49,446 bases of DNA, taken from contig DASXRM010000043.1 of the NCBI GenBank assembly GCA_036506575.1, positions 1 through 49,446 on the forward strand, read 5' to 3'. The position numbers and the translations under genes are program-made. Of the stretch, positions 8,493 to 46,747 are shown in pieces. How positions within the stretch are numbered: position 1 is the stretch's first letter; every line of letters starts with the position of its first letter. Source of the DNA: Gemmatimonadales bacterium. Its GTDB lineage: Bacteria; Gemmatimonadota; Gemmatimonadetes; Gemmatimonadales; GWC2-71-9. The notes below the pieces were generated by a model. That model was not told the DNA's origin, searched no databases, and saw nothing but the letters and a program-made list of their open reading frames with translations.

Positions 8493-8514
8493 GCTGAGCT
8501 CCCCAAAAACATTG

Positions 8515-8706: not shown

Positions 8707-9899
8707 CCACCTTCTTCGGGTGGGTTGGAGAGGATCTCCTCCAGCGCCTGGATTACCGCGTCCATGTCATCGGCCGTGCCGATCGAAATCCGCAGACAAT
8801 CGGCCAGCTCAAGGGAGCTCGATAGGTCTCGTACCAGGATACCATAGTCCTGGTGCAGGCGATGGAAGAGTTGGGTTGCCGAGATGGCCTGACAGCGGAT
8901 CAGCACGAAGTTGGCCGCAGACGGATACACCGAGACACCTGAGACCCGGCGCAGGCGAGCCACGAATCGCTCGCGCGTGCCGATAACCTCGTGGGTGCGG
9001 GCGGTCAGCATCGAGGCGTGCCGCAGGGCGACCCGAGCGGCCGCCAGGGTTATCAGGTTCACGTTGTAGGGCAGCTTTCCCTTGGCGATCTCCCGAGCCA
9101 CAGCCGGATGCGCCAGCGCCACGCCAAACCTGAGTCCGGCCAGCCCCAGCGCCTTGGAGAAAGTCCGGAGAACGACCACGCGCGACGAGTGCCGGAGCAG
9201 TGGGATGGCGCTGGGGCCGCCGAAGTCCTGATACGCTTCATCGCATACCACCAAGGCATCGGTTGCATCGAGAACCCGTTCGACAGCACCCTCGGGGAGC
9301 GCCGAACCGGTCGGATTGTTGGGAGAGTTGAGCACCACGACCCTGGCGTGCTCCCGCCGGGAAGTCTCGATCAGCCGATCGACATCAAAGACGTAAGCTT
9401 CTCCCAGCGGCACCGGTAGGTAGCGCCCGCCCAGCACGCCGGTCAGCAGACGGTACAGCGAGAAGGTCGGTGATGGCGCGACAACCACATCGCCGGCGCC
9501 GAGCGTCACGGCAAGAGTCGCCTGGATCAGCTCGTTCGAGCCGTTCCCCACCAGCACGCCGTCCGGCAGCCATCCATACTGCGCCGCCAGCGCCGACTGA
9601 AGATCGCGCGGCACGAACTCCGGGTAGCGCTGCCAAGGCCGTCCGGCGACCTGATCCCACACTTCCCGCTTGAGCTCGGCGGGGAAATCGAACGGCGACT
9701 CGTTCTGGTTGAGCTTCCGTCGAGCCGCCGGAGCGGCCAACGAGTAGCCCGCCTGGCCGCGCACGGACGGCTTGATCAGCTCGAGGCCGTCCGATGCCGG
9801 CGGCGAGCCCACCGGGCCGGGAGCGTCGAGCGAAGGATTGGTGGGCTGGGTGGGTACCCGCTGAGCGGGGGATGGCGGCGGGGTACGCGGCCGGGTCAA
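8697..9899 (-). CDS. hisC: Histidinol-phosphate aminotransferase
   Basis: KLNQNESPF, GNGSNELI, NSPNNPTG and TFSKALGLAGLRFG (PLP lysine motif). The start as given is a TTG overlapping the stop of the upstream ATPase. The Pro-rich first ~40 aa may not be translated, so the start is uncertain. Confidence 0.88.
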   Translation of the reverse strand: MTRPRTPPPSPAQRVPTQPTNPSLDAPGPVGSPPASDGLELIKPSVRGQAGYSLAAPAARRKLNQNESPFDFPAELKREVWDQVAGRPWQRYPEFVPRDLQSALAAQYGWLPDGVLVGNGSNELIQATLAVTLGAGDVVVAPSPTFSLYRLLTGVLGGRYLPVPLGEAYVFDVDRLIETSRREHARVVVLNSPNNPTGSALPEGAVERVLDATDALVVCDEAYQDFGGPSAIPLLRHSSRVVVLRTFSKALGLAGLRFGVALAHPAVAREIAKGKLPYNVNLITLAAARVALRHASMLTARTHEVIGTRERFVARLRRVSGVSVYPSAANFVLIRCQAISATQLFHRLHQDYGILVRDLSSSLELADCLRISIGTADDMDAVIQALEEILSNPPEEGGRR

Positions 9900-14286: not shown

Positions 14287-14320
14287 CTCTCACCTCTCAC
14301 TCGATGCACCTCTCACCTCT
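14181..14320. repeat. Microsatellite-armed inverted repeat, copy 3: GGTGAGA-type arm 14181-14215, 54-nt spacer, CTCTCAC-type arm 14270-14320
   Basis: Read directly; about 25 of 28 arm positions are complementary. It lies across the 5' ends of two divergent ORFs. Confidence 0.85.
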
Positions 14321-14932
14321 GCCGCTCGAGCAATATTTCATGACCGGATAGCCCCGGTAACCTGGCTCGTGCTCATCGGGTTTGCTACCCTCGGGGGCTG
14401 CGGCACCAGGCCAGCCAGCGCGCCCGCGACACCCCCCGCAGCCGGGCCGACCCCCGCCCGCATCCTGTCGCTCGCCCGCGTCATCGTGCTCGAAACCTCA
14501 GGCCCGCCGCCCTCGGATACGTCGGTGAGCTTCACGACCGGCACTCCGCGAACTATCGTGCTCCGCCACGGCCCGCCGGAAAACGTCGTCTTTGCCAAGC
14601 TGAGCCTTCCCGCTGCCGCATTCGCCGACAGCGGGCGTACGGTCACGGTGGACGTGCGCCCGCGGCCCGGCGTATACGGCCTCGACCTCAGTACCAGTAT
14701 GCCGCTTCGGGGTGGCGCGACCATCACGTTCGACTATGCCCGTTATTTCTCTGCTCCCGCCCGAGCCCGCCAGGTCTATCACACCGATGTGGCGTTCGAG
14801 GGCGCGCTCGCGGTAGGACGAATATTGCCGGACAACCAGATCGAGCTCTTGCCTTCGACCCACCCCGCGCCCGATAACCTGGCCGCCGGGCTCCCCGCGC
14901 CCGGGAGCTACCTCGTGGCGGCGCCACAGTGA
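14267..14932 (+). CDS. Hypothetical lipoprotein (lipobox LGGC)
   Basis: ORF with ...VTWLVLIGFATLGGCGTRPAS. The stop overlaps the trpE GTG (GTGA). The start is ambiguous (ATG 14267 or GTG 14207), and both lie inside repeat copy 3. Confidence 0.4.
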   Translation: MHLSPLTSHLSLDAPLTSAARAIFHDRIAPVTWLVLIGFATLGGCGTRPASAPATPPAAGPTPARILSLARVIVLETSGPPPSDTSVSFTTGTPRTIVLRHGPPENVVFAKLSLPAAAFADSGRTVTVDVRPRPGVYGLDLSTSMPLRGGATITFDYARYFSAPARARQVYHTDVAFEGALAVGRILPDNQIELLPSTHPAPDNLAAGLPAPGSYLVAAPQ

Positions 14933-16461
14933 TCTCCACCTTCGAGAGCTTTGTCGAGCAAGCCCGACGCGGCGGAATGGTACCGGTGACGCGCCAGGTG
15001 GTCCTCGACGGCGAGACGCCGGTAACCGCGTTCGCCAAGCTGCATCGCGGCCGGTACGGTTTTCTCCTGGAGTCGTTGGAGGGAGGCGAGCGCTGGGCCC
15101 GATACACCTTCCTGGCCACGGACCCCAAGGAGGTCTTTTGCTATCGGGGGCGCGAATGCTCGAGCTGGACCCCCGATAGCGGTTGGAGGATCGTGGAAAG
15201 GGACGTTGCCCCGCTGGATCACCTGGGGCGCACGATGCGGCGGCATCCGCCGGTCGAGGTCCCCGGCCTCCCGCGGTTCACCGGAGGGGCCGTCGGTTAC
15301 CTCGGTTATGACATCGTCCGAAGCATCGAGTCCCTGCCCGATGCCCCTCCGGATGATCGGGAACTTCCGGACGCAATCCTGATGCTGGTCGACACCCTGC
15401 TCGTCCTGGACAATCTGTTCAACCGGGCGACCGTCATAGCCAGCGTGGAGGTGCCGATCGGGGCGGCCGAAGCCGATCTGCGCCGGCTGTTTCTCGAGGC
15501 GGTGTCCCGAATCGAGTGCTGGCTCGATCGGCTCGCGACTCCGAGCACCGTCACCGCGCTGGAGATCGAGTCGCTACCGGAGCCGCCCACCGCGACCGGC
15601 CCCTATGCCAACGATCGCTTCCAGCACGACGTGCGCCGGATCAAGGAGTACATTGCAGCCGGCGATACCTTTCAGACCGTGCTCTCCCGGCGGCTGGACC
15701 TCGCGGCGCCTGAGCCCCTGCTCACCTACCGCTACCTGCGAGCGCTGAATCCGGCTCCCTACCTGTACTACCTGCATTGCGACGAGGTACATATCATCGG
15801 CAGCTCGCCGGAGATCCTGGTTCGGGTCGAGGATGCGGAGGTCACGGTCCGGCCGATCGCGGGCACCCGCCCGCGCGGTATCACCGCCGAGGAGGATGTC
15901 GCCCTTGCCGACGAGCTGGCGGCCGATCCCAAGGAGCGGGCCGAGCATCTCATGCTGGTGGACCTGGGCAGAAACGACGTCGGCCGCGTGGCGGAGTTCG
16001 GTACCGTGCGACTCACCGCATTCATGGCCATCGAGCGCTACTCCCACGTGATGCACCTGGTGAGCGAGATCCGAGGCAGGCTCCGGCCCGAGCTCGACGC
16101 CATCGCCGCGCTGACGGCCTGCTTCCCCGCGGGCACCGTCTCCGGCGCACCGAAGGTTCGGGCCATGGAGATCATCGATGAGCTGGAGCCGGTACGACGC
16201 GGGCCATACGCCGGCGCCGTAGGCTATGTGGGCTGGGGAGCGCGCACTCTCGATACCGCCATAGCAATCCGAACCTGCGTCATCAAGGACGGCCGGGCCT
16301 GGGTCCAGGCCGGCGCGGGCATCGTGGCCGATTCCGATCCCGCGGCGGAATGGCGGGAGACCGAAGCGAAGGCCCGCGCCGTCCTGCTCGCGTTGGCGCT
16401 GGCGGGAAGGACGGGAAGGACGGGAAAGACGGGAACGACGGGAACGGAACGCACCAGCTAA
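14929..16461 (+). CDS. trpE: Anthranilate synthase component I
   Basis: N-terminal ...ARRGGMVPVTRQVVLDGETPVTAFAKL; chorismate-binding motifs SPEILVRV, AGTRPRG, LMLVDLGRNDVGRV, GAPKVRAMEIIDELE, GPYAGAVGY. The last ~20 aa (GRTGRTGKTGTTGTERTS) are encoded by the left arm of repeat copy 4. Confidence 0.92.
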   Translation: MISTFESFVEQARRGGMVPVTRQVVLDGETPVTAFAKLHRGRYGFLLESLEGGERWARYTFLATDPKEVFCYRGRECSSWTPDSGWRIVERDVAPLDHLGRTMRRHPPVEVPGLPRFTGGAVGYLGYDIVRSIESLPDAPPDDRELPDAILMLVDTLLVLDNLFNRATVIASVEVPIGAAEADLRRLFLEAVSRIECWLDRLATPSTVTALEIESLPEPPTATGPYANDRFQHDVRRIKEYIAAGDTFQTVLSRRLDLAAPEPLLTYRYLRALNPAPYLYYLHCDEVHIIGSSPEILVRVEDAEVTVRPIAGTRPRGITAEEDVALADELAADPKERAEHLMLVDLGRNDVGRVAEFGTVRLTAFMAIERYSHVMHLVSEIRGRLRPELDAIAALTACFPAGTVSGAPKVRAMEIIDELEPVRRGPYAGAVGYVGWGARTLDTAIAIRTCVIKDGRAWVQAGAGIVADSDPAAEWRETEAKARAVLLALALAGRTGRTGKTGTTGTERTS

Positions 16462-19167: not shown

Positions 19168-19271
19168 GATTTGCCGACCTGAGTCCTTGGACCCTCATGG
19201 ATTTAGTTTTGAGTAGAACTGCAACCAATCATTGCAAGCAAACACGAACGGAAACCCAAGCCTACTTTGTG

Positions 19272-19297
19272 TCCTTCGTGTTCTTCGTGCCTTCGTG
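19272..19297. repeat. Short tandem repeat (TCCTTCGTG TTCTTCGTG CCTTCGTG), possible degenerate relative of the armed inverted repeats
   Basis: Three 9-nt units followed by GTGAGGTTTTTTA. Only an 8-nt partner (AACACGAA, 19241-19248) is present upstream. Confidence 0.45.
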
Positions 19298-33801: not shown

Positions 33802-33945
33802 GAAGGCGGGGCAGCGGCTGGCGAGCTGCCCCCAATCCACGAGGAAAGCGGGTGGGGCGGAGCAGACGACACGGGTAGGGGTTCGAAGGCAGGCTCCCAG
33901 GGGCAGGGCGGAGGGGTTGTCGCGGAGCCTGCCGGAGAGCCCGTG

Positions 33946-33971
33946 CCCGTGTCGGCTGCGCGGTGGGGCGG
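33946..33971. repeat. 26-nt direct repeat, copy 1 (CCCGTGTCGGCTGCGCGGTGGGGCGG)
   Basis: 25 of 26 identity with 34117-34142. Followed by hairpin GGGGCGG(33965-33971)/CCGCCCC(33980-33986). Confidence 0.8.
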
Positions 33972-34116
33972 GACTTCGGCCGCCCCTAACCCCTCGCTTT
34001 GGGCGAGCCACCACCCTTTCGGCCGCTGCAGTGCGCTGCGTCGGTGACGATCCAGCACAGAGGCGAGCGCGCACTGACGCGGCCTCCAGGCTAGCGGCTC
34101 GCCCGGCGCGCCCCAC

Positions 34117-35276: not shown

Positions 35277-36526
35277 CAGCGCGGGACCACCGCGGAGAGG
35301 GTGGCAGCAGGGCGGTCATCCACCTTCTGCCAGAGACTCGCAAAGGCGCTCAGCAGCTCATCAGCCTGGAACGCGCAGTGGCCATATCGGTCCACATCGA
35401 TCTGGGTGAACCACGCCGGCGCACCAGCCTGGGTCACCTTCCCGGCATAGAGCGATGCCTGACCAAATGGGACGATCGGATCACCGGTCGTGTGCAGATT
35501 AACCACCGGTACGGTGAGACTGCCGGAGGTTTCGAATCGACCGAGGGCGGCCAGTGCCGCCGGTTCCGCACTGAAGCGCTGGACCCCCGCGTTCAGTGCT
35601 GCGTCATCCGCCGAGCCGGAGTACACTCGGCCGATATTGTCGAACGGTTGCCCGCCCAGGCGGGCCTGAGCGTCGGCGGTTCCAAAGACGTTGTACCAGA
35701 GCAGCCCGATCGCCGTCTCGGCAATGGACCGAAGGTCGCTCCCCGCGGCCGGAGCGCCGGTAACACTCAGCAACTCGCGCGCGGTGCTGGGCTTGAGCGC
35801 TAGCGCAATGACGATCGCTGGCACATAGACCTCCTCCCAGCGATCTCGAACCGACTGGGGAATGTCCAGCGCGGTCCCGGGGATCACCCCGGGAAAGAAG
35901 TAGTCGAATACCACTCGGAAGTCGTCGATGTAGTCGAGCTGCGCCCGGAAATTGCCGATCGGCCCGCAGCCCGCGAGCGCCCCGTCGAAGCGATCTGCAT
36001 GGCGCTCGGCCGCCAGGGTGGCGACCAGGCCGCCTTCGGAGAACCCGACGACGACCGTATGGGCGGGATCGGGACGGTAGCGATGCTCGACCGTATCCAG
36101 CAATTCGAGCAGATCGTCAACCGCATCGGGGGCAACCAGGCCGTTCGCTCGGTAGCTGGTGGTCGCATAGGCGTAGCCCAGTCCCGTTGCAGTATCGGAG
36201 ACTGACTGACCTCCGACCATGTCGTCGGGAAGCGCGAGCGCCCTGTGAGGCGCCACATAGCCGTGGGCATAGAGCACCAGGTCCCCGTTCCAGGTGGGGG
36301 GAAAGCAGATCCGGTATAGCGCCCCGTGCTCGAGCAGCCCATCCGAGCATCCGGCGGTAGGTGCCTGGCCCTCGTCAACCGGAGGCCCCGGGGGCTCGGG
36401 CCCGGCGAGATCCTGGTTGCCGTCACCGCAGCCAATTACACCACTAGACACAAAAGCGAGAACGGCGCCCCAACCCAGGCGCCGGAGTCTTTCCGGGTTC
36501 CACTTCACGTTGCGTTGCCTCCCCAT
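35276..36526 (-). CDS. Alpha/beta-hydrolase-like lipoprotein
   Basis: Lipobox VIGCGDG and nucleophile elbow VVGFSEGG. An alternative GTG start at 36508 would overlap the ubiX stop as GTGA. Confidence 0.55.
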   Translation of the reverse strand: MGRQRNVKWNPERLRRLGWGAVLAFVSSGVIGCGDGNQDLAGPEPPGPPVDEGQAPTAGCSDGLLEHGALYRICFPPTWNGDLVLYAHGYVAPHRALALPDDMVGGQSVSDTATGLGYAYATTSYRANGLVAPDAVDDLLELLDTVEHRYRPDPAHTVVVGFSEGGLVATLAAERHADRFDGALAGCGPIGNFRAQLDYIDDFRVVFDYFFPGVIPGTALDIPQSVRDRWEEVYVPAIVIALALKPSTARELLSVTGAPAAGSDLRSIAETAIGLLWYNVFGTADAQARLGGQPFDNIGRVYSGSADDAALNAGVQRFSAEPAALAALGRFETSGSLTVPVVNLHTTGDPIVPFGQASLYAGKVTQAGAPAWFTQIDVDRYGHCAFQADELLSAFASLWQKVDDRPAATLSAVVPR

Positions 36527-37098
36527 CGACGGCCAACCTCGACATCGATCTGCAGCTGATCGAGGATCCGCTGTGCCACGAAATCTATCAGTTCGCTCAC
36601 CTGCGTGGGACGATGATAAAAACCGGGTGCTGCGGGGACGACCACCGCGCCCGCCTCAGTGACAGTCACCAGATTCCGGAGATGCACCAGGGATAACGGG
36701 GTCTCCCGCGGCACTAGAATCAGCTTACGACGTTCTTTGAGAGTCACATCCGCTGCCCGCTCGACCAGTGAGCGGCTGGTTCCCCCCGCGATGGCCGCCA
36801 CGGTGCCCATGGAGCAGGGACAGATGACCATTCCCGCGGTGCGCTGCGACCCCGAGGCCGGTAAGGCACCTCGATCCTCGTCGGCGAACGTGACCACCGA
36901 AGACCAATCCCCACCCGTTGCCTGGCGCAGTCCCTCGAGCGACCCGATCCCGCACTCCTCTCGAAGCAGCCGCATGCCGTGCTCGGAGACGATCAGCCAT
37001 ACCGGGATGTTGCTCAGCGCAAGCAGCTCGAGCAGCCGCACACCATAAGGCGCCCCGGACGCCCCCGTCAGGGCGAGAACCACCGGAAAGCGGTTCAC
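36505..37098 (-). CDS. ubiX: Flavin prenyltransferase UbiX
   Basis: ...FPVVLALTGASGAPYGVRLLE..., MVICPCSMGTVAAIAGG. The GTG at 37098 gives a canonical N-terminus. The ORF-track start (GTG 37206) lies in the spacer of repeat copy 5 and reads through its left arm. Confidence 0.85.
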   Translation of the reverse strand: MNRFPVVLALTGASGAPYGVRLLELLALSNIPVWLIVSEHGMRLLREECGIGSLEGLRQATGGDWSSVVTFADEDRGALPASGSQRTAGMVICPCSMGTVAAIAGGTSRSLVERAADVTLKERRKLILVPRETPLSLVHLRNLVTVTEAGAVVVPAAPGFYHRPTQVSELIDFVAQRILDQLQIDVEVGRRWGGNAT

Positions 37099-37147
37099 CG
37101 GCCGCGCCGGTTGGGGGTGGGAGAGCGTAGTGGATGCTTGGGCGGCA

Positions 37148-37290
37148 GGGAAGACGGAGAGGGCGGAGAGGACGGAGAGGGCCAACGACGACCTGGTCTC
37201 TTCCACTCGGGCTTTCCCGTTTGGTCCGTCCTAACGGTTTTATCGCTCTTCTTCATCTCCGTCTTCTCCGTCCTCTCCGTCCTCTCCGCC
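37148..37290. repeat. Microsatellite-armed inverted repeat, copy 5 (ubiA-ubiX intercistronic): GGAGAGGAC-type 9-mers 37148-37181, 74-nt spacer, GTCCTCTCC-type 9-mers 37256-37290
   Basis: Read directly. The right arm ends 1 nt before the ubiA stop codon (37292-37294). Confidence 0.85.
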
Positions 37291-37291
37291 T

Positions 37292-38269
37292 TTATAAAAG
37301 CCTATCCACCAGCGCAAACCCAAACACCACCAGCGACATCACGCCATTCATGGTGAAGAACGCCGCATCGAGTCTGGAGAGATCGCCGGGGCGCACCAGA
37401 TGGTGCTCGTAGGCCAGGATACCGGTAGCGATGGTGAGGCCAAGATAGTACCACGGGCCGAAGCCGGCTCCGAAACCGAAGAGCGCGAGCGCCGGGATGG
37501 TGATTCCGTGAAGCACCTTGGCGAGAACGAGGGCGCGAGATTCACCCAGACGCACTACTGCGCTGCGGAGTCCTTCGGCGCTGTCGAATCCCGCATCCGG
37601 CAGGGCATAGAAGATATCGAATCCAGCGACCCAGGTTGCCACACCCAGCGTAATGGTGATTAGAACCCAGGCCGGAGTGCTCCAGCGGCCGGTCACGGCG
37701 AGATAACCGCCTACCGGGGCGATCGCGAGGCTGAGGCCGAGCCAGAGATGGGGCCACCAGGTAAACCGCTTGGACAGGCTGTAGAGCAGGATCCACACGA
37801 GCGCAATCGGGCTCAACAGCAGACAGAGGGGATTGAGAAGCGCTGCCGACAGCGTGAAGAGCCCGCCGGCCAGAAGCACCGACGCCCAGGCCTGAGTGAG
37901 TGAAAGCCGGCCCTGAGGCAGCTCGCGGTTGAGTGTCCGCGGGTTGCGCGCATCGAACCGCCGGTCGGCGATGCGGTTGAAGCCCATCGCGGCCCAGCGC
38001 GCCGAGGAGAACGCGAGCACTACCAGCGCAACCGTGCTGGGAGTGACGGGCCTGGCCAAGGAGGCCGCCAGCACGCCGAGGAGCGCAAAGGGCAGCGCGA
38101 ACAAGGTGTGCGGCAGTTTGACGAAGTTGGCATACCGGACCAGGAGGGATTGGCCCTCGTAGGTTTGGCCCTCTCGGACAGCAAGCGGTAAGCGGTAAGC
38201 GGTAAGCGGGTCATCCCGCTCGGATCCCGCTGGTCTACCCGATCCAGGGTATTCCGGCTCACCGCTCAC
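37292..38269 (-). CDS. ubiA: UbiA-family aromatic prenyltransferase (4-hydroxybenzoate/1,4-dihydroxy-6-naphthoate polyprenyltransferase-like)
   Basis: ...LVRYANFVKLPHTLFALPFALLG..., NRIADRRFDARNPRT (Asp-rich motif), and about 8 TM segments. The GTG start at 38269 lies inside the right arm of repeat copy 6, so the start is uncertain. Confidence 0.85.
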   Translation of the reverse strand: MSGEPEYPGSGRPAGSERDDPLTAYRLPLAVREGQTYEGQSLLVRYANFVKLPHTLFALPFALLGVLAASLARPVTPSTVALVVLAFSSARWAAMGFNRIADRRFDARNPRTLNRELPQGRLSLTQAWASVLLAGGLFTLSAALLNPLCLLLSPIALVWILLYSLSKRFTWWPHLWLGLSLAIAPVGGYLAVTGRWSTPAWVLITITLGVATWVAGFDIFYALPDAGFDSAEGLRSAVVRLGESRALVLAKVLHGITIPALALFGFGAGFGPWYYLGLTIATGILAYEHHLVRPGDLSRLDAAFFTMNGVMSLVVFGFALVDRLL

Positions 38270-38285
38270 CGCTCACCTCTCACGC
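38181..38285. repeat. Microsatellite-armed inverted repeat, copy 6 (ubiD-ubiA junction): GGTAAGC heptamers 38181-38209, 46-nt spacer, GCTCACC heptamers 38256-38285
   Basis: Read directly. It contains the ubiD stop and the annotated ubiA start. The spacer begins GTCATCCCGCTCGGATCC. Confidence 0.85.
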
Positions 38286-39765
38286 TTTTCAGGTTTATCC
38301 CGAGTTTCCCCCACATCTCATCCACCCGCCGCTTGGTCTCCGCATCCATCGTCATCAGCTCCGGCCACTCCCGGTCGAAGCCTTCCTCCTTCCACTTCCT
38401 GGTCGCGTCGATCCCCATCTTGCTGCCGTAAGTGAAGGCCCGGCTGGAGTGATCGAGCACGTCGATGGGCCCCATGGTAAAGCGGACGTCCCGCTCCGGA
38501 TCGATGTTGTTCAACGCGATCCACCAGGCCTCATCCGGGTCCCGCACGTTGACCTCCTTGTCCACGATCACCAATACCTTGGCGAGTGACATGAGACCCT
38601 GGCCCCAGAGCGCGTTCATCACCTTATAGGCCTGACCCGGGTACTGCTTGTCGATCGAGACGAAGACCAGATTGTGGAAGATGCCGGGGGCCGGCATGTG
38701 ATAGTCCACGATCTCGGGGATCGTGAGCTTGAGCAGCGGCAGGAAGATCCGCTCGGTGGCGTGGCCCAGGTAGAAGTCCTCCATCGGAGGGCGACCCACC
38801 AGCGTTGCGGGATAGATGGGATCTCGCCGGGAGGTGATCGCGGTGACGTGTACCTTGGGGTAGTAGTCCGCCAGCGAGTAGAAGCCGGTGTGGTCGCCGA
38901 ATGGTCCCTCGAGTACCAGTGGCTCGGCGGGGTCGATGAAGCCTTCGAGCACCAGCTCCGCCTGAGCCGGCACATCCAGCTCGCAGGTAACCGCGCGCGC
39001 AAGCTCGACCGGTTCGCGGCGGAGGAACCCCGCAAAGAGAAACTCATCTATCGTGGGGGGGAGCGGTGCGGATCCAGAGTAGATGCTGGCCGGATCGCCC
39101 CCCAAGGCGATGATCACGGGCATCCGCTGGCCTCGAGCCGCCATGTCGCGCCAGTGAGCCGCTCCCACCTTGTGCCGTTGCCAGTGCATGGCGAGCGCAT
39201 TTCGGCCGATGACCTGGATGCGATACATGCCGACGTTGCGAATCCCGCGAGCAGGATCGGTAGTGATCACCATCGGGAGAGTGATGTACCGGCCTCCATC
39301 CCCGGGCCAGGTGGTAAGAAACGGGATGAAATCGAGATTCACTTCCCCGTCCCGCAGAACCAGTTCCTGGCAGGGCGGGCGGCCGCTCTTGACCCGGGGC
39401 GGAAACTTCCCGATTTCCGCGAGCTTCGGCAGCATGGCGAGCTTGCCGAGAAGCCCTTCGGGGACCTTGAGGTTCAGCATCTCGGAGATGCGTCCGCCGA
39501 TCTGGTCGAGATCTTCGACCCCCAGGGCCAATCCCATCCGGCGAAGCGAGCCAAACAGGTTTATGGCAACCGGCTGAGAGCTCCGCCGGCCATCCTCCAG
39601 CAGCACATGCTCGAATAGCAGGGCCGGCCCTCCGCCGGAACTCTTCATGGCCCGGTCGGCGATTTCGGCGATTTCGAGCCGCGCGCGCACTGGGTGAGTC
39701 ACCCGAGTGAGCTCCCCGATGCCGTCGATCGCCTTGATGAAGTCGCGGAGGTTGTCTAGGGCCAT
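38266..39765 (-). CDS. ubiD: UbiD-family (prenylated-FMN-dependent) decarboxylase
   Basis: MALDNLRDFIKAIDGIGELTRV..., ...GRYITLPMVITTDP..., EGPFGDHTGFY. The C-terminal KSVRGER is encoded by the right arm of repeat copy 6. Confidence 0.9.
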   Translation of the reverse strand: MALDNLRDFIKAIDGIGELTRVTHPVRARLEIAEIADRAMKSSGGGPALLFEHVLLEDGRRSSQPVAINLFGSLRRMGLALGVEDLDQIGGRISEMLNLKVPEGLLGKLAMLPKLAEIGKFPPRVKSGRPPCQELVLRDGEVNLDFIPFLTTWPGDGGRYITLPMVITTDPARGIRNVGMYRIQVIGRNALAMHWQRHKVGAAHWRDMAARGQRMPVIIALGGDPASIYSGSAPLPPTIDEFLFAGFLRREPVELARAVTCELDVPAQAELVLEGFIDPAEPLVLEGPFGDHTGFYSLADYYPKVHVTAITSRRDPIYPATLVGRPPMEDFYLGHATERIFLPLLKLTIPEIVDYHMPAPGIFHNLVFVSIDKQYPGQAYKVMNALWGQGLMSLAKVLVIVDKEVNVRDPDEAWWIALNNIDPERDVRFTMGPIDVLDHSSRAFTYGSKMGIDATRKWKEEGFDREWPELMTMDAETKRRVDEMWGKLGINLKSVRGER

Positions 39766-39782
39766 GTCCCCTACAGAAAAGG

Positions 39783-39910
39783 CGTGAACGGTGAACGGTG
39801 AGCGGTGAACGTGAACCGGTGTAGCAGGGTCATCGAACAGCGGATCCCTCGCCGTGCTCGGGATGAGGAGTCTTGGTGCCCGTTCACTGTTTACCGTTCA
39901 CCGTTTACGC
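39783..39910. repeat. Microsatellite-armed inverted repeat, copy 7 (ubiE-ubiD intercistronic): GGTGAAC heptamers 39783-39818, 60-nt spacer, GTTCACC-type heptamers 39879-39910
   Basis: Read directly. The ubiE stop (39891-39893) lies inside the right arm. The spacer carries GGATCCCTCGCCGTGCTCGGGATGAG. Confidence 0.85.
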
Positions 39911-40634
39911 TTTTCGTCCCCACATACAACGCGCACACCCCTCCCATCAGCAGGTCGTAGCGGACCTCCTCGAACCCCTGCTCTGCCATCCTTCGTGCGA
40001 GCTCGGGAGGTGCGGGAAAGACACGGGTGGACTCTGGTAGCCAGCTATAGGCGCTCCTATGTTTCGAGATCCAGCGGCCAATCAAAGGCATTACCCGACG
40101 GAAATAGAATTGGTATGCCGCGCGCAGGAGCCGTCGGCCCGGGAGGGCCGTCTCGAGGATAACGAGTTTCCTGCCCGGTCGGAGGACCCGCGCCGCTTCA
40201 GCGAGCCCGGCATCGAGATCCATCAGATTGCGCAAACCCCAGCCGACCATCGCGCCGTCGAACGTCTGGTCGGGAAACGGTAGCTCGAGCGCGTCGGCGC
40301 TTACCGGAACCAGCCTCGGCGCCTTGTCGCGCCCCAGCTCCAGCATGCGCCGCACGAAATCAGCTCCGATCACCCGCCCGCGGAATCCCGGCCGGTTCGC
40401 CAGCGTGGCGCCGAAATCCAGGGTGCCGGCGCACAGGTCGAGATAGATTCCTTCAGGCTCCCGCTCCCACCCCAACCGTGCGACCGCGTAGCGTCTCCAG
40501 CGCTGGTCGAACCGGAAGCTGATGATGCGATTGAGCCGGTCGTAAGTGGGAGCAATGGCGGTGAAAATGGCCCGGACGTAGGCCCGCTTTTCCGGACCGC
40601 CTGAAACGGGTAACTGACGATCCGAGGCTAACAT
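39891..40634 (-). CDS. ubiE: Demethylmenaquinone / ubiquinone C-methyltransferase (UbiE/MenG)
   Basis: ...VRAIFTAIAPTYDRLNRIISF..., SAM motif YLDLCAGTLDFG, LRPGRKLVILE. The C-terminal KSVNGER is encoded by the right arm of repeat copy 7. Confidence 0.88.
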   Translation of the reverse strand: MLASDRQLPVSGGPEKRAYVRAIFTAIAPTYDRLNRIISFRFDQRWRRYAVARLGWEREPEGIYLDLCAGTLDFGATLANRPGFRGRVIGADFVRRMLELGRDKAPRLVPVSADALELPFPDQTFDGAMVGWGLRNLMDLDAGLAEAARVLRPGRKLVILETALPGRRLLRAAYQFYFRRVMPLIGRWISKHRSAYSWLPESTRVFPAPPELARRMAEQGFEEVRYDLLMGGVCALYVGTKSVNGER

Positions 40635-40684
40635 AGGCGCTGAATGTAGTCCCGCGGGAAGCTCCTTCGCAAGGCGAGCATTTC

Positions 40685-41290
40685 GTGCCTAGCGGCCGGC
40701 AGGAATGGGGCGGCCTCAGCGATCAGGACGTGGTGCTGCGGGCCCGCTCCGGTCAGGAGGCCGCCTACCGGGAACTGATCCGTCGCTACGAGCGGCCCAT
40801 CTTTGCCCTGCTCTTTCGGATGGTGCGCGACCGCGAGCTGGCCGAGGACCTGGCGCAGGAAACGTTCGTCAAGGCGCTCAACGCCATCGATTCGTACCGC
40901 CCGGAGTTCAAGTTCTCCTCCTGGATCTTCAAGATCGCGAACAACGCGGCCATCGATCATCTGCGCCGGCGGGAGTTGGATACCCTCTCGTTAGATGGCT
41001 CTCCCCACGCCGAAACGCCCGAGGCCATGCAGGCCACCGCGCTTCAGATCGGGGCTCGGCAGGAAACCCCGCTCGACACGGTGGAAGCCAAAGAGCTGGG
41101 TACTGCGATCGAGGCTGCCATCGGCTCGCTCCGGCCCGAGTATCGCTCGTGTATCCTGCTCCGCCATGTGGAGGGGCGCGCGTACGAGGAGATCGCGGAG
41201 ATTCTCAACCTGCCACTCGGCACGGTGAAGACCTATATCCACCGCGCCCGCAATGAGCTCAGACAGTCGCTCGCGCACCTCAAGGGATGA
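40685..41290 (+). CDS. ECF (RpoE-like) RNA polymerase sigma factor
   Basis: Region 2: YRELIRRYERPIFALLFRMVRDRELAEDLAQETFVKA...FSSWIFKIANNAAIDHLRR. Region 4: LRHVEGRAYEEIAEILNLPLGTVKTYIHRARNELR. GTG start. Confidence 0.88.
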   Translation: MPSGRQEWGGLSDQDVVLRARSGQEAAYRELIRRYERPIFALLFRMVRDRELAEDLAQETFVKALNAIDSYRPEFKFSSWIFKIANNAAIDHLRRRELDTLSLDGSPHAETPEAMQATALQIGARQETPLDTVEAKELGTAIEAAIGSLRPEYRSCILLRHVEGRAYEEIAEILNLPLGTVKTYIHRARNELRQSLAHLKG

Positions 41291-41327
41291 AACCTCCCGT
41301 TCACCCTCAACGTAGGAGGGTCCACTT

Positions 41328-41930
41328 ATGACCCGTCCCGCCGGATCGCATCTCTCCCCCGAGGAGATCGACGCCTGCCTCAGCGGAGCGCCCGCCGTCG
41401 AGTTGCAGCGCCATCTCGATCAGTGCCAGGCCTGTCTCGAGGAGGTGCGGGCGGACCGCGAGATCGCGGAGCAGATCGCGGCCCTCCCATTAATGAGTCC
41501 GGTGGATGGCTTCACCGAGCGGGTCATGGCTTCAGTGGTGGTTCCTGACCCCTTCGCCATCCGTTCCCTCCAGGCTACCCGACGCCGTCTCTTTGCAGCC
41601 CCGAGGACTCTTGCTGCCGGACTCGCGCTCTTTCTGCTGAGCTCGATGGCTGGCAGCGTAGTCTGGTCGCTCACGCACCAGGAGACCCTCGCATCGATCG
41701 GCTCCTGGCTCATTTCTCAAGGCGGGCAGGCGGTATGGCTCGGCGTTCGGGGATTGGCGTCCAACTTGATCGAGCAGCCCTGGTATACCGGCATCAGGGC
41801 TCTGCTGGAGCATCCGGCTCGCCTCGCGCTGATCTCGGCGCTGACCTCGTTCGCCTACGTGGGCGGAGTCTTCGCCTTGCGCCGCCTCCTGGCTGTTCCG
41901 ACCCAGCAGGTGGCCCATGCGGGGGTATAA
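41328..41930 (+). CDS. Membrane-bound anti-sigma factor (zf-HC2-like N-terminus)
   Basis: SD GGAGGG. HLDQCQACLEEV motif followed by two hydrophobic segments. It lies immediately downstream of the ECF sigma gene. Confidence 0.65.
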   Translation: MTRPAGSHLSPEEIDACLSGAPAVELQRHLDQCQACLEEVRADREIAEQIAALPLMSPVDGFTERVMASVVVPDPFAIRSLQATRRRLFAAPRTLAAGLALFLLSSMAGSVVWSLTHQETLASIGSWLISQGGQAVWLGVRGLASNLIEQPWYTGIRALLEHPARLALISALTSFAYVGGVFALRRLLAVPTQQVAHAGV

Positions 41931-43203
41931 TCGGCTGCTCGGGCCCCTCGCCGTTCTCGCCGCGGTGGTGCCGGGCCCGCTGCCTGCGGAGACCCCGTTC
42001 GATCGCCTCACTTCCAGTGCGGTAAACCTGGTGGACCATTTCCGGATGCTCATCCGGGAGGTCTCACCTGACTGGCAGGGGCAGCGCGAGTCGGCCCTAG
42101 CGCGTCCTCAGCCTCAAACGATTCCAGTCGGCGGAACTTCAATCGACCTGAGCGATCTCAGCCGGCCCACCGTGGTCGAGACGCGGCTCCGCTCGGCACT
42201 CGAGCCGGTGAACGGAGAGGTCCGGCTCACCGTTTCCGGCGGAACGGCGCGCCGGGGAGACTTTAGCCTCGGCTCATCCGAGAGCCATAACGGCCACCTG
42301 CTGGTGGTGGACGGAAACGCCGACATCTACGGGCATCTCAGCGGGAATCTGGTGACAGTGAAGGGTGACGTGGTGCTGCATCCGGGCGGAGTGGTCTCTG
42401 GTGACATCCTCACCCTAGGAGGCGAGGTAAGGGATGAAGGCGGCGAGATCGGCGGCGAGGTGCGCACCCTCAAGGCGACCACATTGCTCTCCCCCGTCAC
42501 CAGAGCCGAACCGGAAGTCCTCACCCCGCTTCAGAGTGTGCTCCGGCGCATCGCCGGGGTTCTCGGGGTATTCTTGACTCTCTTGGTGCTGGGCTTTGGC
42601 CTGGTGATGTTTGGCCGGCAAAATCTCGAGATCGTCTCCGACACCGTCTCCCACTCCTTCGGCCGAGCGTTTCTGACCGGACTCCTCGGGCAGATTCTGC
42701 TTCTTCCCACCTTTGGCATGCTCGTCGTTGGTCTGATCCTTAGTGTCGCCGGGATTCTGCTACTCCCGTTTGCCATCGCGGTGTTCGCCATGCTGGCCGT
42801 CATCGGCATCGTCGGCGGGTACCTCGCCGTGGCTCACGCGATGGGTGAGACCTACACCCGGAGGCGTATGGCTCTCGGCGCTCTGATCGGGTCCCCCAAC
42901 AGCTATCGGTATGTCCTGGTCGGCCTGCTGGCCCTGGCGAGTCTGTGGGCCGCGTGGGCGCTGTTCGGATGGGTGCCGGTGGCGGGAAGTATCGTCTGGG
43001 GAGCGGCGTTTTTCGTGACCTGGCTCCTGGGAACCGCTGGCTTTGGGGCGGCGCTGTTGAGCCGCGCTGGCATCAAGGAGAATTTTGCCGGACGATTGTT
43101 CCCCCCGGAAGCACTCACCGACGAATACCTGTGGGCCACTCCCCAGTTCGGCGTGCCTGCGGGCCGGCGGCCTGGCACCCGCACACCTCCGCGCGGAGCT
43201 TGA
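41917..43203 (+). CDS. Membrane protein with bactofilin-like (polymer-forming) beta-helical repeat and multiple C-terminal TM segments
   Basis: Signal peptide. Repeat NADIYGHLSGNLVTVKGDVVLHPGGVVSGDILTLGGEVRDEGGEIGGEVRTL. Then 5-6 hydrophobic helices. Confidence 0.5.
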   Translation: MRGYNRLLGPLAVLAAVVPGPLPAETPFDRLTSSAVNLVDHFRMLIREVSPDWQGQRESALARPQPQTIPVGGTSIDLSDLSRPTVVETRLRSALEPVNGEVRLTVSGGTARRGDFSLGSSESHNGHLLVVDGNADIYGHLSGNLVTVKGDVVLHPGGVVSGDILTLGGEVRDEGGEIGGEVRTLKATTLLSPVTRAEPEVLTPLQSVLRRIAGVLGVFLTLLVLGFGLVMFGRQNLEIVSDTVSHSFGRAFLTGLLGQILLLPTFGMLVVGLILSVAGILLLPFAIAVFAMLAVIGIVGGYLAVAHAMGETYTRRRMALGALIGSPNSYRYVLVGLLALASLWAAWALFGWVPVAGSIVWGAAFFVTWLLGTAGFGAALLSRAGIKENFAGRLFPPEALTDEYLWATPQFGVPAGRRPGTRTPPRGA

Positions 43204-43205
43204 GC

Positions 43206-44048
43206 GTGAAACGCGGGGCGGTCACTCTGGTCCTCCTACTGTGGACCGGGGCAGCACAGGCCCAGACGATGCGCCCCTTCGCCACCTTCCGCCAGATGCA
43301 TGGAGAAACCCGCCTGGCCGCGCGGCTCGAGTATGCGGCCGGTAACCTTCGAGTGGCGCCCGGCCGGCCGGCCGAGCTGTATCGCATGGAGCTTTCCTAC
43401 GACCAGGACCGCTACCTGCCGGTGAGCGATTACCATGCGCAGAGCGGCGCAGTGGTTCTGGGACTGAGGCCCGCGGGTGAGGGTGGAGTTCGCGTGGTCT
43501 CACGGAACCAGTTGAGCCAGATCGCAACGGTCGCCCTGTCGCCCCGAGTGGACCTCGCGCTCGCTCTCACCTTGGGCGCCACGGATGCCGACGTGGAGTT
43601 GGGCGGCCTCAGAATCACCAATCTGCACGTGAAAACCGGCGCCAGCCGGGCCCTGATCCGCTTCTCACAGCCGAATGCGGCCCGCTGTGATCTCGCCAGC
43701 ATCAGTGCGGGGGCGGCTGAGGTGTCGGTGCTCGGTCTGGGGAACAGCCGGTGCGACGAGATCGAATTCGAGGGTGGGATCGGCAAGGTGTTGCTCGATT
43801 TTGCCGGGACTTGGAGCTCGAGCTCCCGGGTAGAGGTGAAAATGGCCATGGGCGAGCTCACCCTTCGCCTCCCGCGCGGAGTCGGTGTCCGGATCAGGAT
43901 GGACAAGTTCCTATCGAGCTTCGAGCCGGTCGGGCTGGTGCGGCAAGGCGATGCCTTCGAGTCGCCCAACTATAGCCGTACCCAGCGCCACCTGGACCTC
44001 GACCTCACAACGGCTGTCGGCGGGGTGAATGTGGAGTGGGTGGAGTAG
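43206..44048 (+). CDS. Secreted beta-strand-repeat protein (LiaF/LiaG-type, DUF2154/DUF4097-like)
   Basis: GTG at 43206, 2 nt after the upstream stop. Signal peptide VTLVLLLWTGAAQA. Repetitive strands ...VELGGLRITNLHVKTGASRALIRF...EVSVLGLGNSRCDEIEFEGGIGKVLLDF...VEVKMAMGELTLRLPRGVGVRIRM. Confidence 0.45.
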   Translation: MKRGAVTLVLLLWTGAAQAQTMRPFATFRQMHGETRLAARLEYAAGNLRVAPGRPAELYRMELSYDQDRYLPVSDYHAQSGAVVLGLRPAGEGGVRVVSRNQLSQIATVALSPRVDLALALTLGATDADVELGGLRITNLHVKTGASRALIRFSQPNAARCDLASISAGAAEVSVLGLGNSRCDEIEFEGGIGKVLLDFAGTWSSSSRVEVKMAMGELTLRLPRGVGVRIRMDKFLSSFEPVGLVRQGDAFESPNYSRTQRHLDLDLTTAVGGVNVEWVE

Positions 44049-44164
44049 CAGTGAGAGGTGAGAGGTAAGAGGTGAGAGGTTTTTCAGCCAGAGCGAAGTG
44101 GATCCCTCGCTTCGCTCAGGATGACACCTCTTCCCTCTCACTTCTCACTGCTCACCCCTTACCC
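44049..44164. repeat. Microsatellite-armed inverted repeat, copy 8: GGTGAGA heptamers 44049-44079, 45-nt spacer, pyrimidine arm 44125-44164
   Basis: Read directly. It starts 1 nt after the upstream TAG and ends 12 nt before the next ATG. The spacer has hairpin AGCGAAG(44092-44098)/CTTCGCT(44110-44116) and the motif GGATCCCTCGCTTCGCTCAGGATGAC. Confidence 0.85.
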
Positions 44165-44176
44165 TAGCTTTCCCCC

Positions 44177-44794
44177 ATGTCTCCCCTTGAGACCCTCGGC
44201 TTCGCCCTCGGCACGTCCTTCGCCTCAGGGCTGAATGTCTACGCCACCGTGGCGGCCGCCGGTCTGTTTCAGCGATTCGGCATCGTTCAGCTCCCCGATT
44301 CCCTTCAGGTGCTCGCGAACCCCTTCGTCCTGGGGATCGCGATCACGCTTTTCTTGATCGAGTTCGTCGCCGACAAGATCCCTTATATCGACACCGCCTG
44401 GGACGCCGTACACACCTTCATCCGGCCTCCGGCAGCGGCAATCATCTCGTACAGCGCCTTTGGCCACGTACCGGAGGAGTGGAAGCTGGGTGCCGCGCTC
44501 CTCGCAGGAGGTGTGGCGCTCACCTCGCACGGGGCCAAGGCTACCAGCCGGGCCGCGGCCAATACCAGCCCGGAGCCGGTCAGTAACTGGACGCTCAGCA
44601 TTGTAGAAGACGCCCTGGCCGTATTCCTGGCCTGGATGGCGGCGGCCCACCCCATCCTGACGGCCGGGATCGTTGTGGTACTGGTGATTGTGGCGGTGTT
44701 TGTGATCTGGAAACTATACGGCTACCTGCGGCTACTCCGGGAACGGCTGCGGCACTGGCGCGCCAGGCCGGCCACACCTCCCCCAATCATCTAG
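44177..44794 (+). CDS. DUF4126-family integral membrane protein
   Basis: ...GTSFASGLNVYATVAAAGL...LFLIEFVADKIPYIDTAWDAVHTFIRP..., with several TM segments. Confidence 0.7.
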   Translation: MSPLETLGFALGTSFASGLNVYATVAAAGLFQRFGIVQLPDSLQVLANPFVLGIAITLFLIEFVADKIPYIDTAWDAVHTFIRPPAAAIISYSAFGHVPEEWKLGAALLAGGVALTSHGAKATSRAAANTSPEPVSNWTLSIVEDALAVFLAWMAAAHPILTAGIVVVLVIVAVFVIWKLYGYLRLLRERLRHWRARPATPPPII

Positions 44795-45549
44795 CCCAGT
44801 TTGGCCCGAACTCTTCCTCCCACCCCAACACCCAGCCGCCTGGCCGCTGATCCGTTTCGCACCGCGATCTCGATGGTGCCGCCGGATCCGATGTAGGCCA
44901 GCAGTCCTCCCGGGGTCACGTCGTTGTAGGTGCGTTTGAGCGGACCGAGATCGAGATCTTCCACCTCGAGTGTGGCGTAAGAGGGAACCTGCTCCGAGGT
45001 GAGGTTAGTGATGAGGCTGCCGAATCGATCGATGTAGACGATCTCGCCTACGACCGTTTTCCCTTCATAGTGCGGCGGGGTGTACGCGAGCCGTTCGGGG
45101 ATGCCGGCGAAGGGCGGGCCCAGGGCCGATAGGCCGGCTCCGCCGGCCAGTGCGGCTGCCGCCGGAGCGAATAGGTCGCGACCATGGAAGGTCGGCGACG
45201 CGGCGGCGGATAGCGGGAGCGCCACCGCTTCCACTTCAGAGTCGCGCAGAACCGGCGTGAACACGCCGTTGTCGGGACCCACGAAGTAGTGGCCGTGCGC
45301 GCTGAGGGCAAGCGCGGCACGGGCAGTGCCAACCTCCGGATCAACCACTACCATATGAACGGTGCCGGCGGGAAACCGGTGCCAAGCGCGACCCAGAATG
45401 TAGGCGGCTGATCTTATGTCGCCCGGAGCGACCCCATGGCTCACATCAATCAGGACCGCTGAGGGAGCCCCGCTGAGGAGCACCCCTTTCATCTCCGCAA
45501 CGTAAGAGTCGCTTGTCCCGAAATCGGTCAGTAGCGTGACGAACGTCAT
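44791..45549 (-). CDS. SAM hydroxide adenosyltransferase (DUF62, chlorinase/fluorinase-like fold)
   Basis: MTFVTLLTDFGTSDSYVAEMKGVLLS..., ...VVDPEVGT..., ...TFHGRDLFAPAAA.... Confidence 0.85.
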   Translation of the reverse strand: MTFVTLLTDFGTSDSYVAEMKGVLLSGAPSAVLIDVSHGVAPGDIRSAAYILGRAWHRFPAGTVHMVVVDPEVGTARAALALSAHGHYFVGPDNGVFTPVLRDSEVEAVALPLSAAASPTFHGRDLFAPAAAALAGGAGLSALGPPFAGIPERLAYTPPHYEGKTVVGEIVYIDRFGSLITNLTSEQVPSYATLEVEDLDLGPLKRTYNDVTPGGLLAYIGSGGTIEIAVRNGSAARRLGVGVGGRVRAKLG

Positions 45550-45634
45550 CCGTACGAGATGTCGACGATAATCGTTGCGAGGGCGCGCACCATCACGGAG
45601 TCATTGCGAGGAAACGCAGTGTTCTCCGTCCTCT

Positions 45635-46747
45635 TCACCCCCGAAGGATCGGGAGCGCCATAGTCCGGCCGGCGGTCTTTCGCTGAAGGCTTTCGGCGAT
45701 ATCGCGCAGGCTCTGGGCGGCGGGACTGTCCGGCTGCGCGACGAGAATGGGCTGGCCGGCATCGGCCAGCGCGGCGAGCTGCGGCTGGAGTGGCACGGTG
45801 CCGAGCAGGGGTGCGGCGATCTCGTCGGCGAGCCGCTGGCCGCCACCCGACGAGAAGAGCTCAAGCCGACGGCCGGTCTCAGGATCGGTGAAGCCGCTCA
45901 TGTTCTCCACCACGCCAATCACCGGGACACCCACCCGCTCGAACATCTTGGCGCCGCGGAGCGCATCCCCCACGGCAACTTCCTGCGGCGTCGTCACGAT
46001 GAGAGCGCCGGCCACCTGGGTCGCCTGAACCAGGGAAAGCTGAGCATCCCCGGTGCCAGGAGGGAGGTCCACGATGAAATAATCGAGCTTGCCCCAGTCA
46101 ACGTCCCTGAGGAACTGATTCACGATCTTCATGATGATGGGGCCTCGCCAAATGGCTGGGGCATCGCGCTCCACCAGGAGACCCAGAGACATCAGCTTCA
46201 CGCCGTGGGCCTCGAGCGGCTGGATCTTCCCTCCGACCACGGGTGGTCGATCGAAGACCCCGAACATCCGGGGGATGTTCGGACCGTAGATGTCCGCGTC
46301 CATGACACCCACCTGGAACCCCGCCTGGGCCAGCGCCACCGCCAGGTTCGCGGCTACGGTGGACTTCCCGACCCCACCTTTGCCCGAGGAGATCGCGATG
46401 ATCTTTCCGAGGTTGGGCTGATCCAGCGGCTGGGACGCGGCCGAAGTCGGTACTGCGCCCGATGGCGTCGGCGGTCCATGGGTGGGTCTGGCGGGGCCGG
46501 CGGGGTTGGTGACGTTGATCTTGATCTCGTCCTTCCTGACTCCTTCGACCGCGGCGACTGCGGCGCGAGCCGACCGTACCAGGGTGGCCGGATCCTCGGG
46601 AGCGAGCAGGAACGTGAACGTCACCCGCCCTTCGTCTGTGACGGTGAGATCGCGGATCATCCCGGCGGACAAGAGGTCGTTGTCCAGCCGCGGATTCTGG
46701 ATGCGCGCCAGCGCCGCCGCGACGCGAGCCTCAATCGATTCGCTCAA
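45635..46747 (-). CDS. mrp: Mrp/ApbC/NBP35-family Fe-S cluster carrier ATPase
   Basis: DUF59-like N-terminus; deviant Walker A IIAISSGKGGVGKSTVAANLA; ...DLPPGTGD.... TTG start 3 nt after the nifU-like stop. Confidence 0.92.
   Translation of the reverse strand: MSESIEARVAAALARIQNPRLDNDLLSAGMIRDLTVTDEGRVTFTFLLAPEDPATLVRSARAAVAAVEGVRKDEIKINVTNPAGPARPTHGPPTPSGAVPTSAASQPLDQPNLGKIIAISSGKGGVGKSTVAANLAVALAQAGFQVGVMDADIYGPNIPRMFGVFDRPPVVGGKIQPLEAHGVKLMSLGLLVERDAPAIWRGPIIMKIVNQFLRDVDWGKLDYFIVDLPPGTGDAQLSLVQATQVAGALIVTTPQEVAVGDALRGAKMFERVGVPVIGVVENMSGFTDPETGRRLELFSSGGGQRLADEIAAPLLGTVPLQPQLAALADAGQPILVAQPDSPAAQSLRDIAESLQRKTAGRTMALPILRG

Follow-up and report, generated by a model that had tools for sequence, protein, structure and literature searches.

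Repetitive extragenic palindromic (REP) sequences affect mRNA stability and the translation of the upstream gene, and Rickettsia palindromic elements (RPEs) can be translated within host proteins. REP ends often give the neighbouring open reading frame (ORF) its stop codon, and some REPs lie within ORFs (PMC3733652). In the STRR repeats of cyanobacteria and the TAACTGA repeats of Beggiatoaceae, Cyanobacteria and Bacteroidetes, tandem heptamers occupy intergenic regions near start codons; the TAACTGA-type units carry stop codons that close all frames, a translational role has been proposed for them, and their arrays are direct and built of one fixed unit, with a single inverted case in 170 sets (PMC4679880). 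Here we describe hairpins in which both arms are tandem repeats, in 49,446 nt of a Gemmatimonadales bacterium (GCA_036506575.1, contig DASXRM010000043.1, positions 1-49,446; this whole stretch is hereafter the window). One such hairpin is found at each junction of the ubiE-ubiD-ubiA-ubiX operon, on the minus strand at 36505-40634. Judged by comparison with relatives, the whole hairpins are insertions, present or absent at orthologous junctions. We propose, with a probability of about 0.65, that they are selfish palindromes with tandem-repeat arms, similar to REPs or to miniature inverted-repeat transposable elements (MITEs), which have been absorbed into the ends of genes.

The operon and its three hairpins

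The genes and elements of the operon, in the order of transcription, are:

39891-40634, minus strand: ubiE/menG methyltransferase (TIGR01934 above cutoff); the TAA stop and the 7 codons before it (K241-R247) are part of element J1
39778-39914, minus strand: J1, between ubiE and ubiD; 137 nt, 7-mer arms of the GGTGAAC type, 53-nt loop
38266-39765, minus strand: menaquinone decarboxylase of the UbiD family, MqnL type (595 bits with TIGR03701, whose cutoff is 496)
38183-38289, minus strand: J2, between ubiD and ubiA; 107 nt, AAAAGCGTGAGAGG(GTGAGCG)n, 47-nt loop, (CCGCTTA)n
37292-38269, minus strand: ubiA-family prenyltransferase, MqnP-like (the UbiA-like TIGR01475 above cutoff)
37144-37292, minus strand: J3, after ubiA; 9-mer arms GGAGAGGAC at 37256-37290 and their complement at 37144-37178
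37095-37256, minus strand: small conserved ORF of 53 aa (MKKSDKTV...KHPLRSPTPNRRGR-stop), between ubiA and ubiX
36505-37098, minus strand: ubiX flavin prenyltransferase, 197 aa from GTG 37098 (PRK06029 above cutoff)

An earlier assignment of this gene set to a late menaquinone cluster of the futalosine type is borne out by the profile matches; the MqnP models, applied to UbiA, score below their cutoffs. The gene order is the same in 80/80 loci that were retrieved from Gemmatimonadales metagenome-assembled genomes with the UbiD protein as query (73-91% identity).

The first-pass annotation had placed one hairpin at each junction (its copies 7, 6 and 5), and all three, here J1, J2 and J3, are indeed present. 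On the sense strand, the 5′ arm of J1 spans 39875-39914 and its 3′ arm 39778-39821, and the element begins with AAAAGCGTAAACGGTGAACGG and ends with CCGTTCACGCCTTTT. The arms of J2 consist of 3.9 copies of GGTGAGC on the 5′ side and 3.9 copies of GCTTACC on the 3′ side. That is, the element had been recognized correctly, but its description by a single unit, GGTAAGC, does not hold, since the two arms differ and each GGTGAGC unit, in pairing with GCTTACC, forms a G:U wobble. In J3, the 5′ arm begins right behind the TAA stop of ubiA. With loops of 47-77 nt, the three elements fold as sense RNA to -56.9 (J1), -67.8 (J2) and -80.0 (J3) kcal/mol, corresponding to z-scores of -3.5, -7.2 and -6.3, and 0/200 shuffled sequences were as stable. 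The window as a whole is likewise rich in tandem arrays: 15 arrays with a period of 7-9 nt and at least 2.8 copies were found, whereas 50 simulated third-order Markov versions of it had 1.3 on average and 4 at most.

Filled and empty junctions and the wider family

The spacing between conserved protein anchors on either side of the junctions varies widely among the 80 loci, from about 4 to 437 nt at J1, from about 47 to 288 nt at J2, and from about 26 to 512 nt at J3. In the native, short form of J1, ubiE ends in GTK(x)-stop and ubiD starts with an overlap or a few bases off; in that of J2, ubiD ends in ...GIRL-stop and the start of ubiA overlaps as GTGA or ATGA, followed by MS..REGQTF. The J1 element is absent from the same junction in seven relatives (L008, L024, L034, L035, L041, L044 and L055). 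At J2, orthologous copies are found in L001, L002, L087, L090, L091 and L097, and the junction is empty in L009, L049, L050 and L055. In one relative (L094) the 5′ arm of J2 alone remains, the loop and the 3′ arm having been deleted between CGGGAG microhomologies; thus, at least some one-armed arrays are remnants of complete elements. J3 has an orthologous copy in L087, with conserved arms and a diverged loop.

The J1 junction of L007 was considered as a never-occupied site and rejected: the initial 9 nt of the element, AAAAGCGTA, are still there, probably as a footprint; at about 5990-6005, this ubiE/ubiD junction reads ACAAAAGCGTAATGG, which resembles what a deletion leaves behind. A further contig (L081; Logan SRR11743025, 7035 nt) is 100% identical to window positions 39194-46228, and a look-up with exact proteins for strain-level variation in copy number returned an identical contig only.

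The window and the 80 loci (L001-L080), 0.89 Mb in all, were surveyed for elements of this kind, with genes called by a codon log-odds caller in place of a GC3-based caller that proved too noisy. The survey yielded 58 paired elements with many different units; the window contains about nine armed hairpins. Elements of the GGTGAGC/GGTGAAC type, to which J1 and J2 belong, have conserved inverted ends, AAAAGCGTGAGCGG...CCGCTCACGCTTTT; both ends are conserved, as terminal inverted repeats, in 9 elements. J1 and J2 of the window, as well as J1, J2 or J3 of several relatives, start with AAAAGCGTGAG and often finish with CTCACGCTTTT, and AAAAGCGTGAG is absent from the empty sites. The GTAG/CGTC tetranucleotide was not found at the stem foot, where the ends read AAAAGCGTGAG...CTCACGCTTTT, and the other unit types share no common stem foot.

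In metagenome contigs, the exact 25-nt end AAAAGCGTGAGNGGTGAGCGGTGAG occurs at 19 loci, namely five orthologs of J2, one ubiA/ubiX junction and at least 12 unrelated flanks (four from one sample). Compact copies measure 78 nt, with loops of 9-12 nt. In L092, whose neighbours are Gemmatimonadales, a 78-nt copy separates murB from an acetyltransferase gene and gives MurB the tail ...EEEGVSGER-stop; in L101, L103 and L104 only 0-3 nt separate the murB stop from the acetyltransferase start. A blastn search of a plasmid collection, with J1 and with an element of the CACGGAGA type, gave no match.

Units are shared between sites in 34% of the pairs within a genome, against 10% of those between genomes (permutation p<0.0005). 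The two arms of an element are homogenised separately: the 5′ units of the window's J2 are all GGTGAGC and its 3′ units all GCTTACC, and in an element of L043 one arm counts 13.8 copies and its partner 6.6. Even so, copy number is correlated between the arms (rho 0.49), and the unit types form a gradient, GGCGGTAA, GCGGTAA, GCGGTGA and ACGGTGA. As to handedness, the purine- or G-rich array is the 5′ arm in 49/58 elements, alike on both strands, and the reverse arrangement was seen in one.

Gene ends and starts within the elements, and other repeats of the window

In the window, UbiE ends ...GTKSVNGER-stop and UbiD ...NLKSVRGER-stop; in the latter, the TGA stop and the 7 codons ahead of it (K493-R499) are part of J2. 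Both seven-residue tails are read from the element end AAAAGCGT and share, from the lysine on, the frame AAA AGC GTR ARN GGT GAR CGG TRA. A 5′ end of the J1/J2 type closes each incoming frame in at most 8 codons: frame 1 reads AAA AGC GTG AGC GGT GAG CGG TGA (KSVSGER-stop), frame 2 AAA GCG TGA (KA-stop), and frame 3 AAG CGT GAG CGG TGA (KRER-stop). The near-identity of the UbiE and UbiD tails follows from this property. Whether such tails outrun the conserved protein ends had been set as a check beforehand, and the UbiE profiles (Pfam and TIGR01934) do stop at residue 241 of 247. Repeat-free orthologs with the same tails, which had been named as a refutation, did not turn up: in orthologs without the element, UbiE ends in ...GTK(x)-stop and UbiD in ...GIRL-stop. 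The tails are thus repeat-encoded.

At the start of ubiA the overlap goes further. GTG 38269, already named in the first-pass annotation as the sole in-frame start, is the only ATG, GTG or TTG upstream of the REGQT motif, and it overlaps the ubiD stop as GTGA at 38266-38269, inside J2. Codons 1-29 of UbiA therefore coincide with J2, i.e., with the remainder of the 5′ arm, the loop and the 3′ arm, and the native N-terminus REGQTYEGQS is reached from codon 32; the predicted arm-encoded peptide is VSGEPEYPGSGR.... About 75 loci have kept the REGQTF motif, and in about 50 of these ubiD and ubiA overlap by 4 nt, with or without a hairpin. In L001, L002 and L008, an orthologous J2 element has kept its length (173-176 nt) and an open frame while its loop sequence has diverged. 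The obligatory GTG start, the 29 element codons and the frame kept open in these three relatives agree with one of the two alternatives offered earlier, namely that, as far as reading frames can tell, the element arms are partly translated. In the survey set, the 3′ arms are free of stops in 51/57 elements, and the 5′ arms close all three frames in 18/37 heptamer elements.

J3 is likewise part of a reading frame. The ATG of the 53-aa ORF directly follows the 5′ arm of J3, so that the loop and the 3′ arm lie inside the ORF, and its TGA overlaps the GTG of ubiX. The product is basic and proline-rich, and its C-terminus, KHPxRSPTPNRRGR-stop, is conserved in most relatives with a long J3. All 39 public clusters that it matched are labelled 'hypothetical', those with an organism name being from Gemmatimonadales, and no Pfam family matched. 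The ORF is present in L018 and absent from its close relative L020. For ubiX itself, GTG 37206 had been given as the longest start, but UbiX profiles begin at residue 42 of that long ORF; a start at GTG 37098 gives the usual MNRFPVVLALTGASG N-terminus.

Such compatibility with reading frames probably explains how elements persist in very tight junctions, in which stop and start often overlap. The 5′ end closes all three incoming frames, GTG starts are available in the GTGAGC units, and the pyrimidine-rich 3′ arm is free of stops in every frame. By virtue of this build, the elements of the window provide UbiE and UbiD with their stop codons and final 7 residues, UbiA with its GTG and first 29 codons, and the small ORF with part of its sequence.

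The window contains further repeats, namely:

1-186, 14180-14320 and 44047-44155: armed hairpins with the unit GGTGAGA and unrelated loops
8501-8720: AT-rich armed hairpin at the hisB/hisC junction, units CACGGATAA, 150-nt loop
16402-16497: armed hairpin whose 9-mer arm CGGGAAGGA is read as the (GRT)n C-terminal tail of TrpE
39843-39867, plus strand: within the J1 loop, a type-2 repeat (GATCCCTCGC..GCTCGGGATGA), member of a second family
about 33990-34110, and also 33862-33959: type-3 palindromic repeat of about 110 nt, core TTCGGCCGCTGCAGTGCGC...GCGCACTGACGCGGCC

The hairpin at 14180-14320, in a divergent region, extends over the start of a minus-strand gene (12205-14286); the candidate start codons of this gene are located in the arm or the loop. 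In TrpE (anthranilate synthase, 14929-16461), the Pfam profile stops at residue 481 of 510, and the stop codon lies in the loop of the hairpin. The hairpin at 8501-8720 is similar to a 'TTCACCACGGAGACACGGAG...CTCCGTGTCTCCGTGGTGAA' family that occurs at J1 of L009 and L015, J2 of L014 and J3 of L038. An array at 19265-19297 is one-armed and folds no better than its shuffles.

The type-2 repeat (GTCATCCYGAGCG.AGCGARGGATC) has 2 matches in the window, at 39843-39867 and 44101-44125, where 0 are expected; it forms the apical hairpin within J1 and within the element at 44047, and is also found inside the 3′ arm of J2 in L087 and L097. In L017, at 5630-5914, a pair of type-2 repeats flanks a 95-aa ORF for a GIY-YIG nuclease, which suggests that these repeats and the ORF make up a small mobile element with non-autonomous derivatives. 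The type-3 repeat is homologous to inserts at the ubiE/ubiD (J1) and ubiA/ubiX (J3) junctions of L004.

Possible origins, and comparison with described repeats

If the hairpins are inserted selfish palindromes, they may have spread by a hairpin-dependent copying process that leaves no duplication, such as one carried out by an HUH/Y1-type enzyme or ectopic conversion. The arms of inserted elements gain and lose units, each being homogenised alone, and deletions reduce some elements to one-armed remnants. Several observations weigh against this account. No target-site duplication, or direct repeat outside the stems, was found in any of the 58 elements, and none was seen in the 9 copies with defined ends or in the comparison of filled and empty murB junctions. 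The loops of family members are unrelated. Among about 40 ORFs of the window, which have ordinary Pfam domains, there is no mobilising gene, transposase or RAYT, and a tblastn search with an IS200 TnpA query against 1 Mb of loci, a weak test, gave no match. For the 9-mer element at J3 no dispersed copies were found, the orthologous copy in L087 being the only other one. Two further observations could mean that a hairpin is selected for at these junctions: the same junction carries hairpins with unrelated units in different genomes (GTGAGAG, GGCGGACTG, GGCTATC or ACACGAAA behind the gene ending in LELEAGIPPRGRLV, and AGGGAATG or AGCCATT behind ubiX), and the arms are better conserved than the loops, both among the orthologs of J2 and between J3 and its copy in L087. 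Lastly, relatives with 8-mer hairpins at J2 have a native-looking ATGAG stop/start in the loop, which fits growth of the hairpin in place equally well.

Indeed, the hairpins might have arisen where they stand, with no movement, by slippage that duplicated a motif of the junction, for instance the GTGAGC overlap, followed by inverted duplication or template switching. Native junctions read ...CTGTGAGCGG... and thereby hold a GTGAGCG unit, L015 has 2.5 units beside a native GGTGACC, and the 8-mer hairpins surround the native-looking ATGAG. The occurrence of one-armed arrays, the separate homogenisation of arms (e.g., 13.8 against 6.6 copies in L043) and the missing target-site duplication would all fit, and locally arising tandem repeats are known from Borg elements (PMC9879509). 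Against this stand the identical 25-nt end beside at least 12 unrelated flanks, the recurrence of the AAAAGCGTGAG end at J1, J2 and J3 when empty sites are without it, and odd units that are common within genomes; the one-armed array of L094, moreover, clearly results from a deletion. We consider growth in place improbable overall: a purely local origin is unlikely for J1 and J2, and is a possibility chiefly for J3 and for the 8-mer hairpins of relatives.

The first-pass annotation had taken the presence of a hairpin at every boundary as a sign of operon-specific control. In this case the elements would be functional intercistronic mRNA structures, setting the levels of MenG, MqnL, MqnP and UbiX through processing, stability or enforced coupling. 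As sense-strand RNA the stems have high stability, the GTGA of J2 lies inside a stem and about 50 of 75 loci retain the 4-nt overlap irrespective of a hairpin, many relatives have some hairpin at these junctions, and the arms are more conserved than the loops. However, at each of the junctions the hairpin is lacking in many close relatives that keep the operon, and the same kind of element stands at many unrelated junctions, divergent and convergent ones included. Where stop and start stand with respect to the arms also differs between J1, J2 and J3 and from genome to genome. Nor is there a signature of compensatory change. A consensus fold of 4 orthologous J2 elements gave a covariation term of +0.56, i.e., no support for covariation, with three double changes that amount to one repeated event and about nine broken cells. 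Among 43 elements between co-directional genes, a set that includes orthologous copies and hence is not fully independent, folding is better on the antisense strand in 25 and on the sense strand in 12; with the same reservation, arm mismatches on the sense strand comprise 35 G:U, 64 A:C and 75 transversions, so that A:C exceeds G:U and transversions are not depleted. A search of the window against Rfam 15 found no match at gathering thresholds, the sub-threshold matches being generic hairpin matches to miRNA precursor models. On balance an operon-specific regulatory role seems unlikely to us, and the elements do not appear to be a dedicated regulator of the menaquinone operon, for which their presence is probably neutral.

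Side effects are to be expected all the same, as stems of 25-35 bp would form in the mRNA. The stem of J2 would bury the GTGA and thereby make translation of ubiA dependent on the ribosome arriving from ubiD, and the stems would slow decay from the 3′ end. Two other RNA- or DNA-level explanations were dropped: mimicry of Shine-Dalgarno and anti-Shine-Dalgarno sequences by GAGGTGA and TCACCTC arms suits only some unit types and follows trivially from complementarity, and G-quadruplexes formed by arms with G3 tracts would concern a minority of units.

The elements could also be portable, bidirectional terminators or 3′-end protectors, consisting of an A-run, a long GC-rich stem and a T-run, which attenuate read-through. 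Compact copies are in fact bounded by A4-7 and T4-7, UUUUCUGU follows J1 on the sense strand, and several copies lie between convergent genes (L019, L025 and L088). Yet a scan of 36300-41000 for terminators and promoters found no canonical site at the three elements, and stems of 25-40 bp with loops of 9-120 nt are unlike a canonical terminator, which has a short stem, a loop of 3-8 nt and a U-tract. J2 and J3 lie within reading frames, the T-run is missing in many families, and some copies occur within apparent operons, as at murB in L092 and at the trpE junction of the window. We regard this as the least probable of the explanations considered. A broader idea, which we hold as tentative and rather doubtful, is that an undescribed class of mobile palindromes, fitted to junctions with overlapping stop and start, acts as frame-independent 'stop, then restart' cassettes, which a hairpin-specific enzyme spreads and in which slippage then grows the arms. 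Their long stems would tie translation of the downstream gene strictly to the ribosome arriving from upstream and so rewire coupling at hundreds of junctions per genome.

For annotation, these results imply that many gene ends and starts beside elements in Gemmatimonadales are repeat-encoded, as in the (GRT)n tail of TrpE, the recurrent ...KSVSGER-stop tails and the 29 extra N-terminal codons of UbiA; programs that call ORFs will place starts wrongly, as for ubiX, and will overlook the small ORF between ubiA and ubiX. The lineage has several interleaved palindromic families, with tandem-repeat arms, one preferred handedness and no duplication scar. The elements show how selfish DNA can settle at junctions devoid of intergenic space, and, should a mobilising enzyme or a coupling effect be found, they would offer a compact natural part with which to join cistrons.

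Literature searches on Gemmatimonadetes repeats, heptamer hairpins and STRR brought up no description of such elements, and two surveys of REPs make no mention of Gemmatimonadales or of the phylum. Tandem repeats of Borg elements evolve rapidly, occur at many loci and add disordered tails to proteins; they differ in being direct only, with locus-specific units, in archaeal extrachromosomal elements, and without a hairpin or conserved ends (PMC9879509). From the STRR and TAACTGA repeats, the present elements differ in that their arrays are inverted pairs forming hairpins, with many units. MITEs and similar sequences (Correia, ERIC and Chunjie elements, and the RPEs) are, like the elements described here, non-autonomous, 80-150 nt long, provided with inverted ends, and tolerated between co-transcribed genes. 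Here, in contrast, no target-site duplication and no parent insertion sequence is known, the interior is not conserved between copies, and the arms are short tandem repeats. The REP, BIME and REPIN sequences of Proteobacteria are associated with RAYT, for which no gene was found here among the roughly 40 ORFs of the window or, in a weak test, over 1 Mb of loci; they also have a GTAG/CGTC head, in place of the AAAAGCGTGAG ends, and stems of 10-15 bp, as compared with 25-40 bp and arms of 7-9-nt tandem units in variable copy number. In other respects the likeness is close: both are dispersed, multi-copy palindromes at gene boundaries, in genome-specific families and without target-site duplication, and both supply stop codons and have copies within ORFs. 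The hairpins of the menaquinone operon would thus belong to a class of dispersed palindromes, present throughout the Gemmatimonadales, that is functionally akin to REP/REPIN sequences or MITEs.

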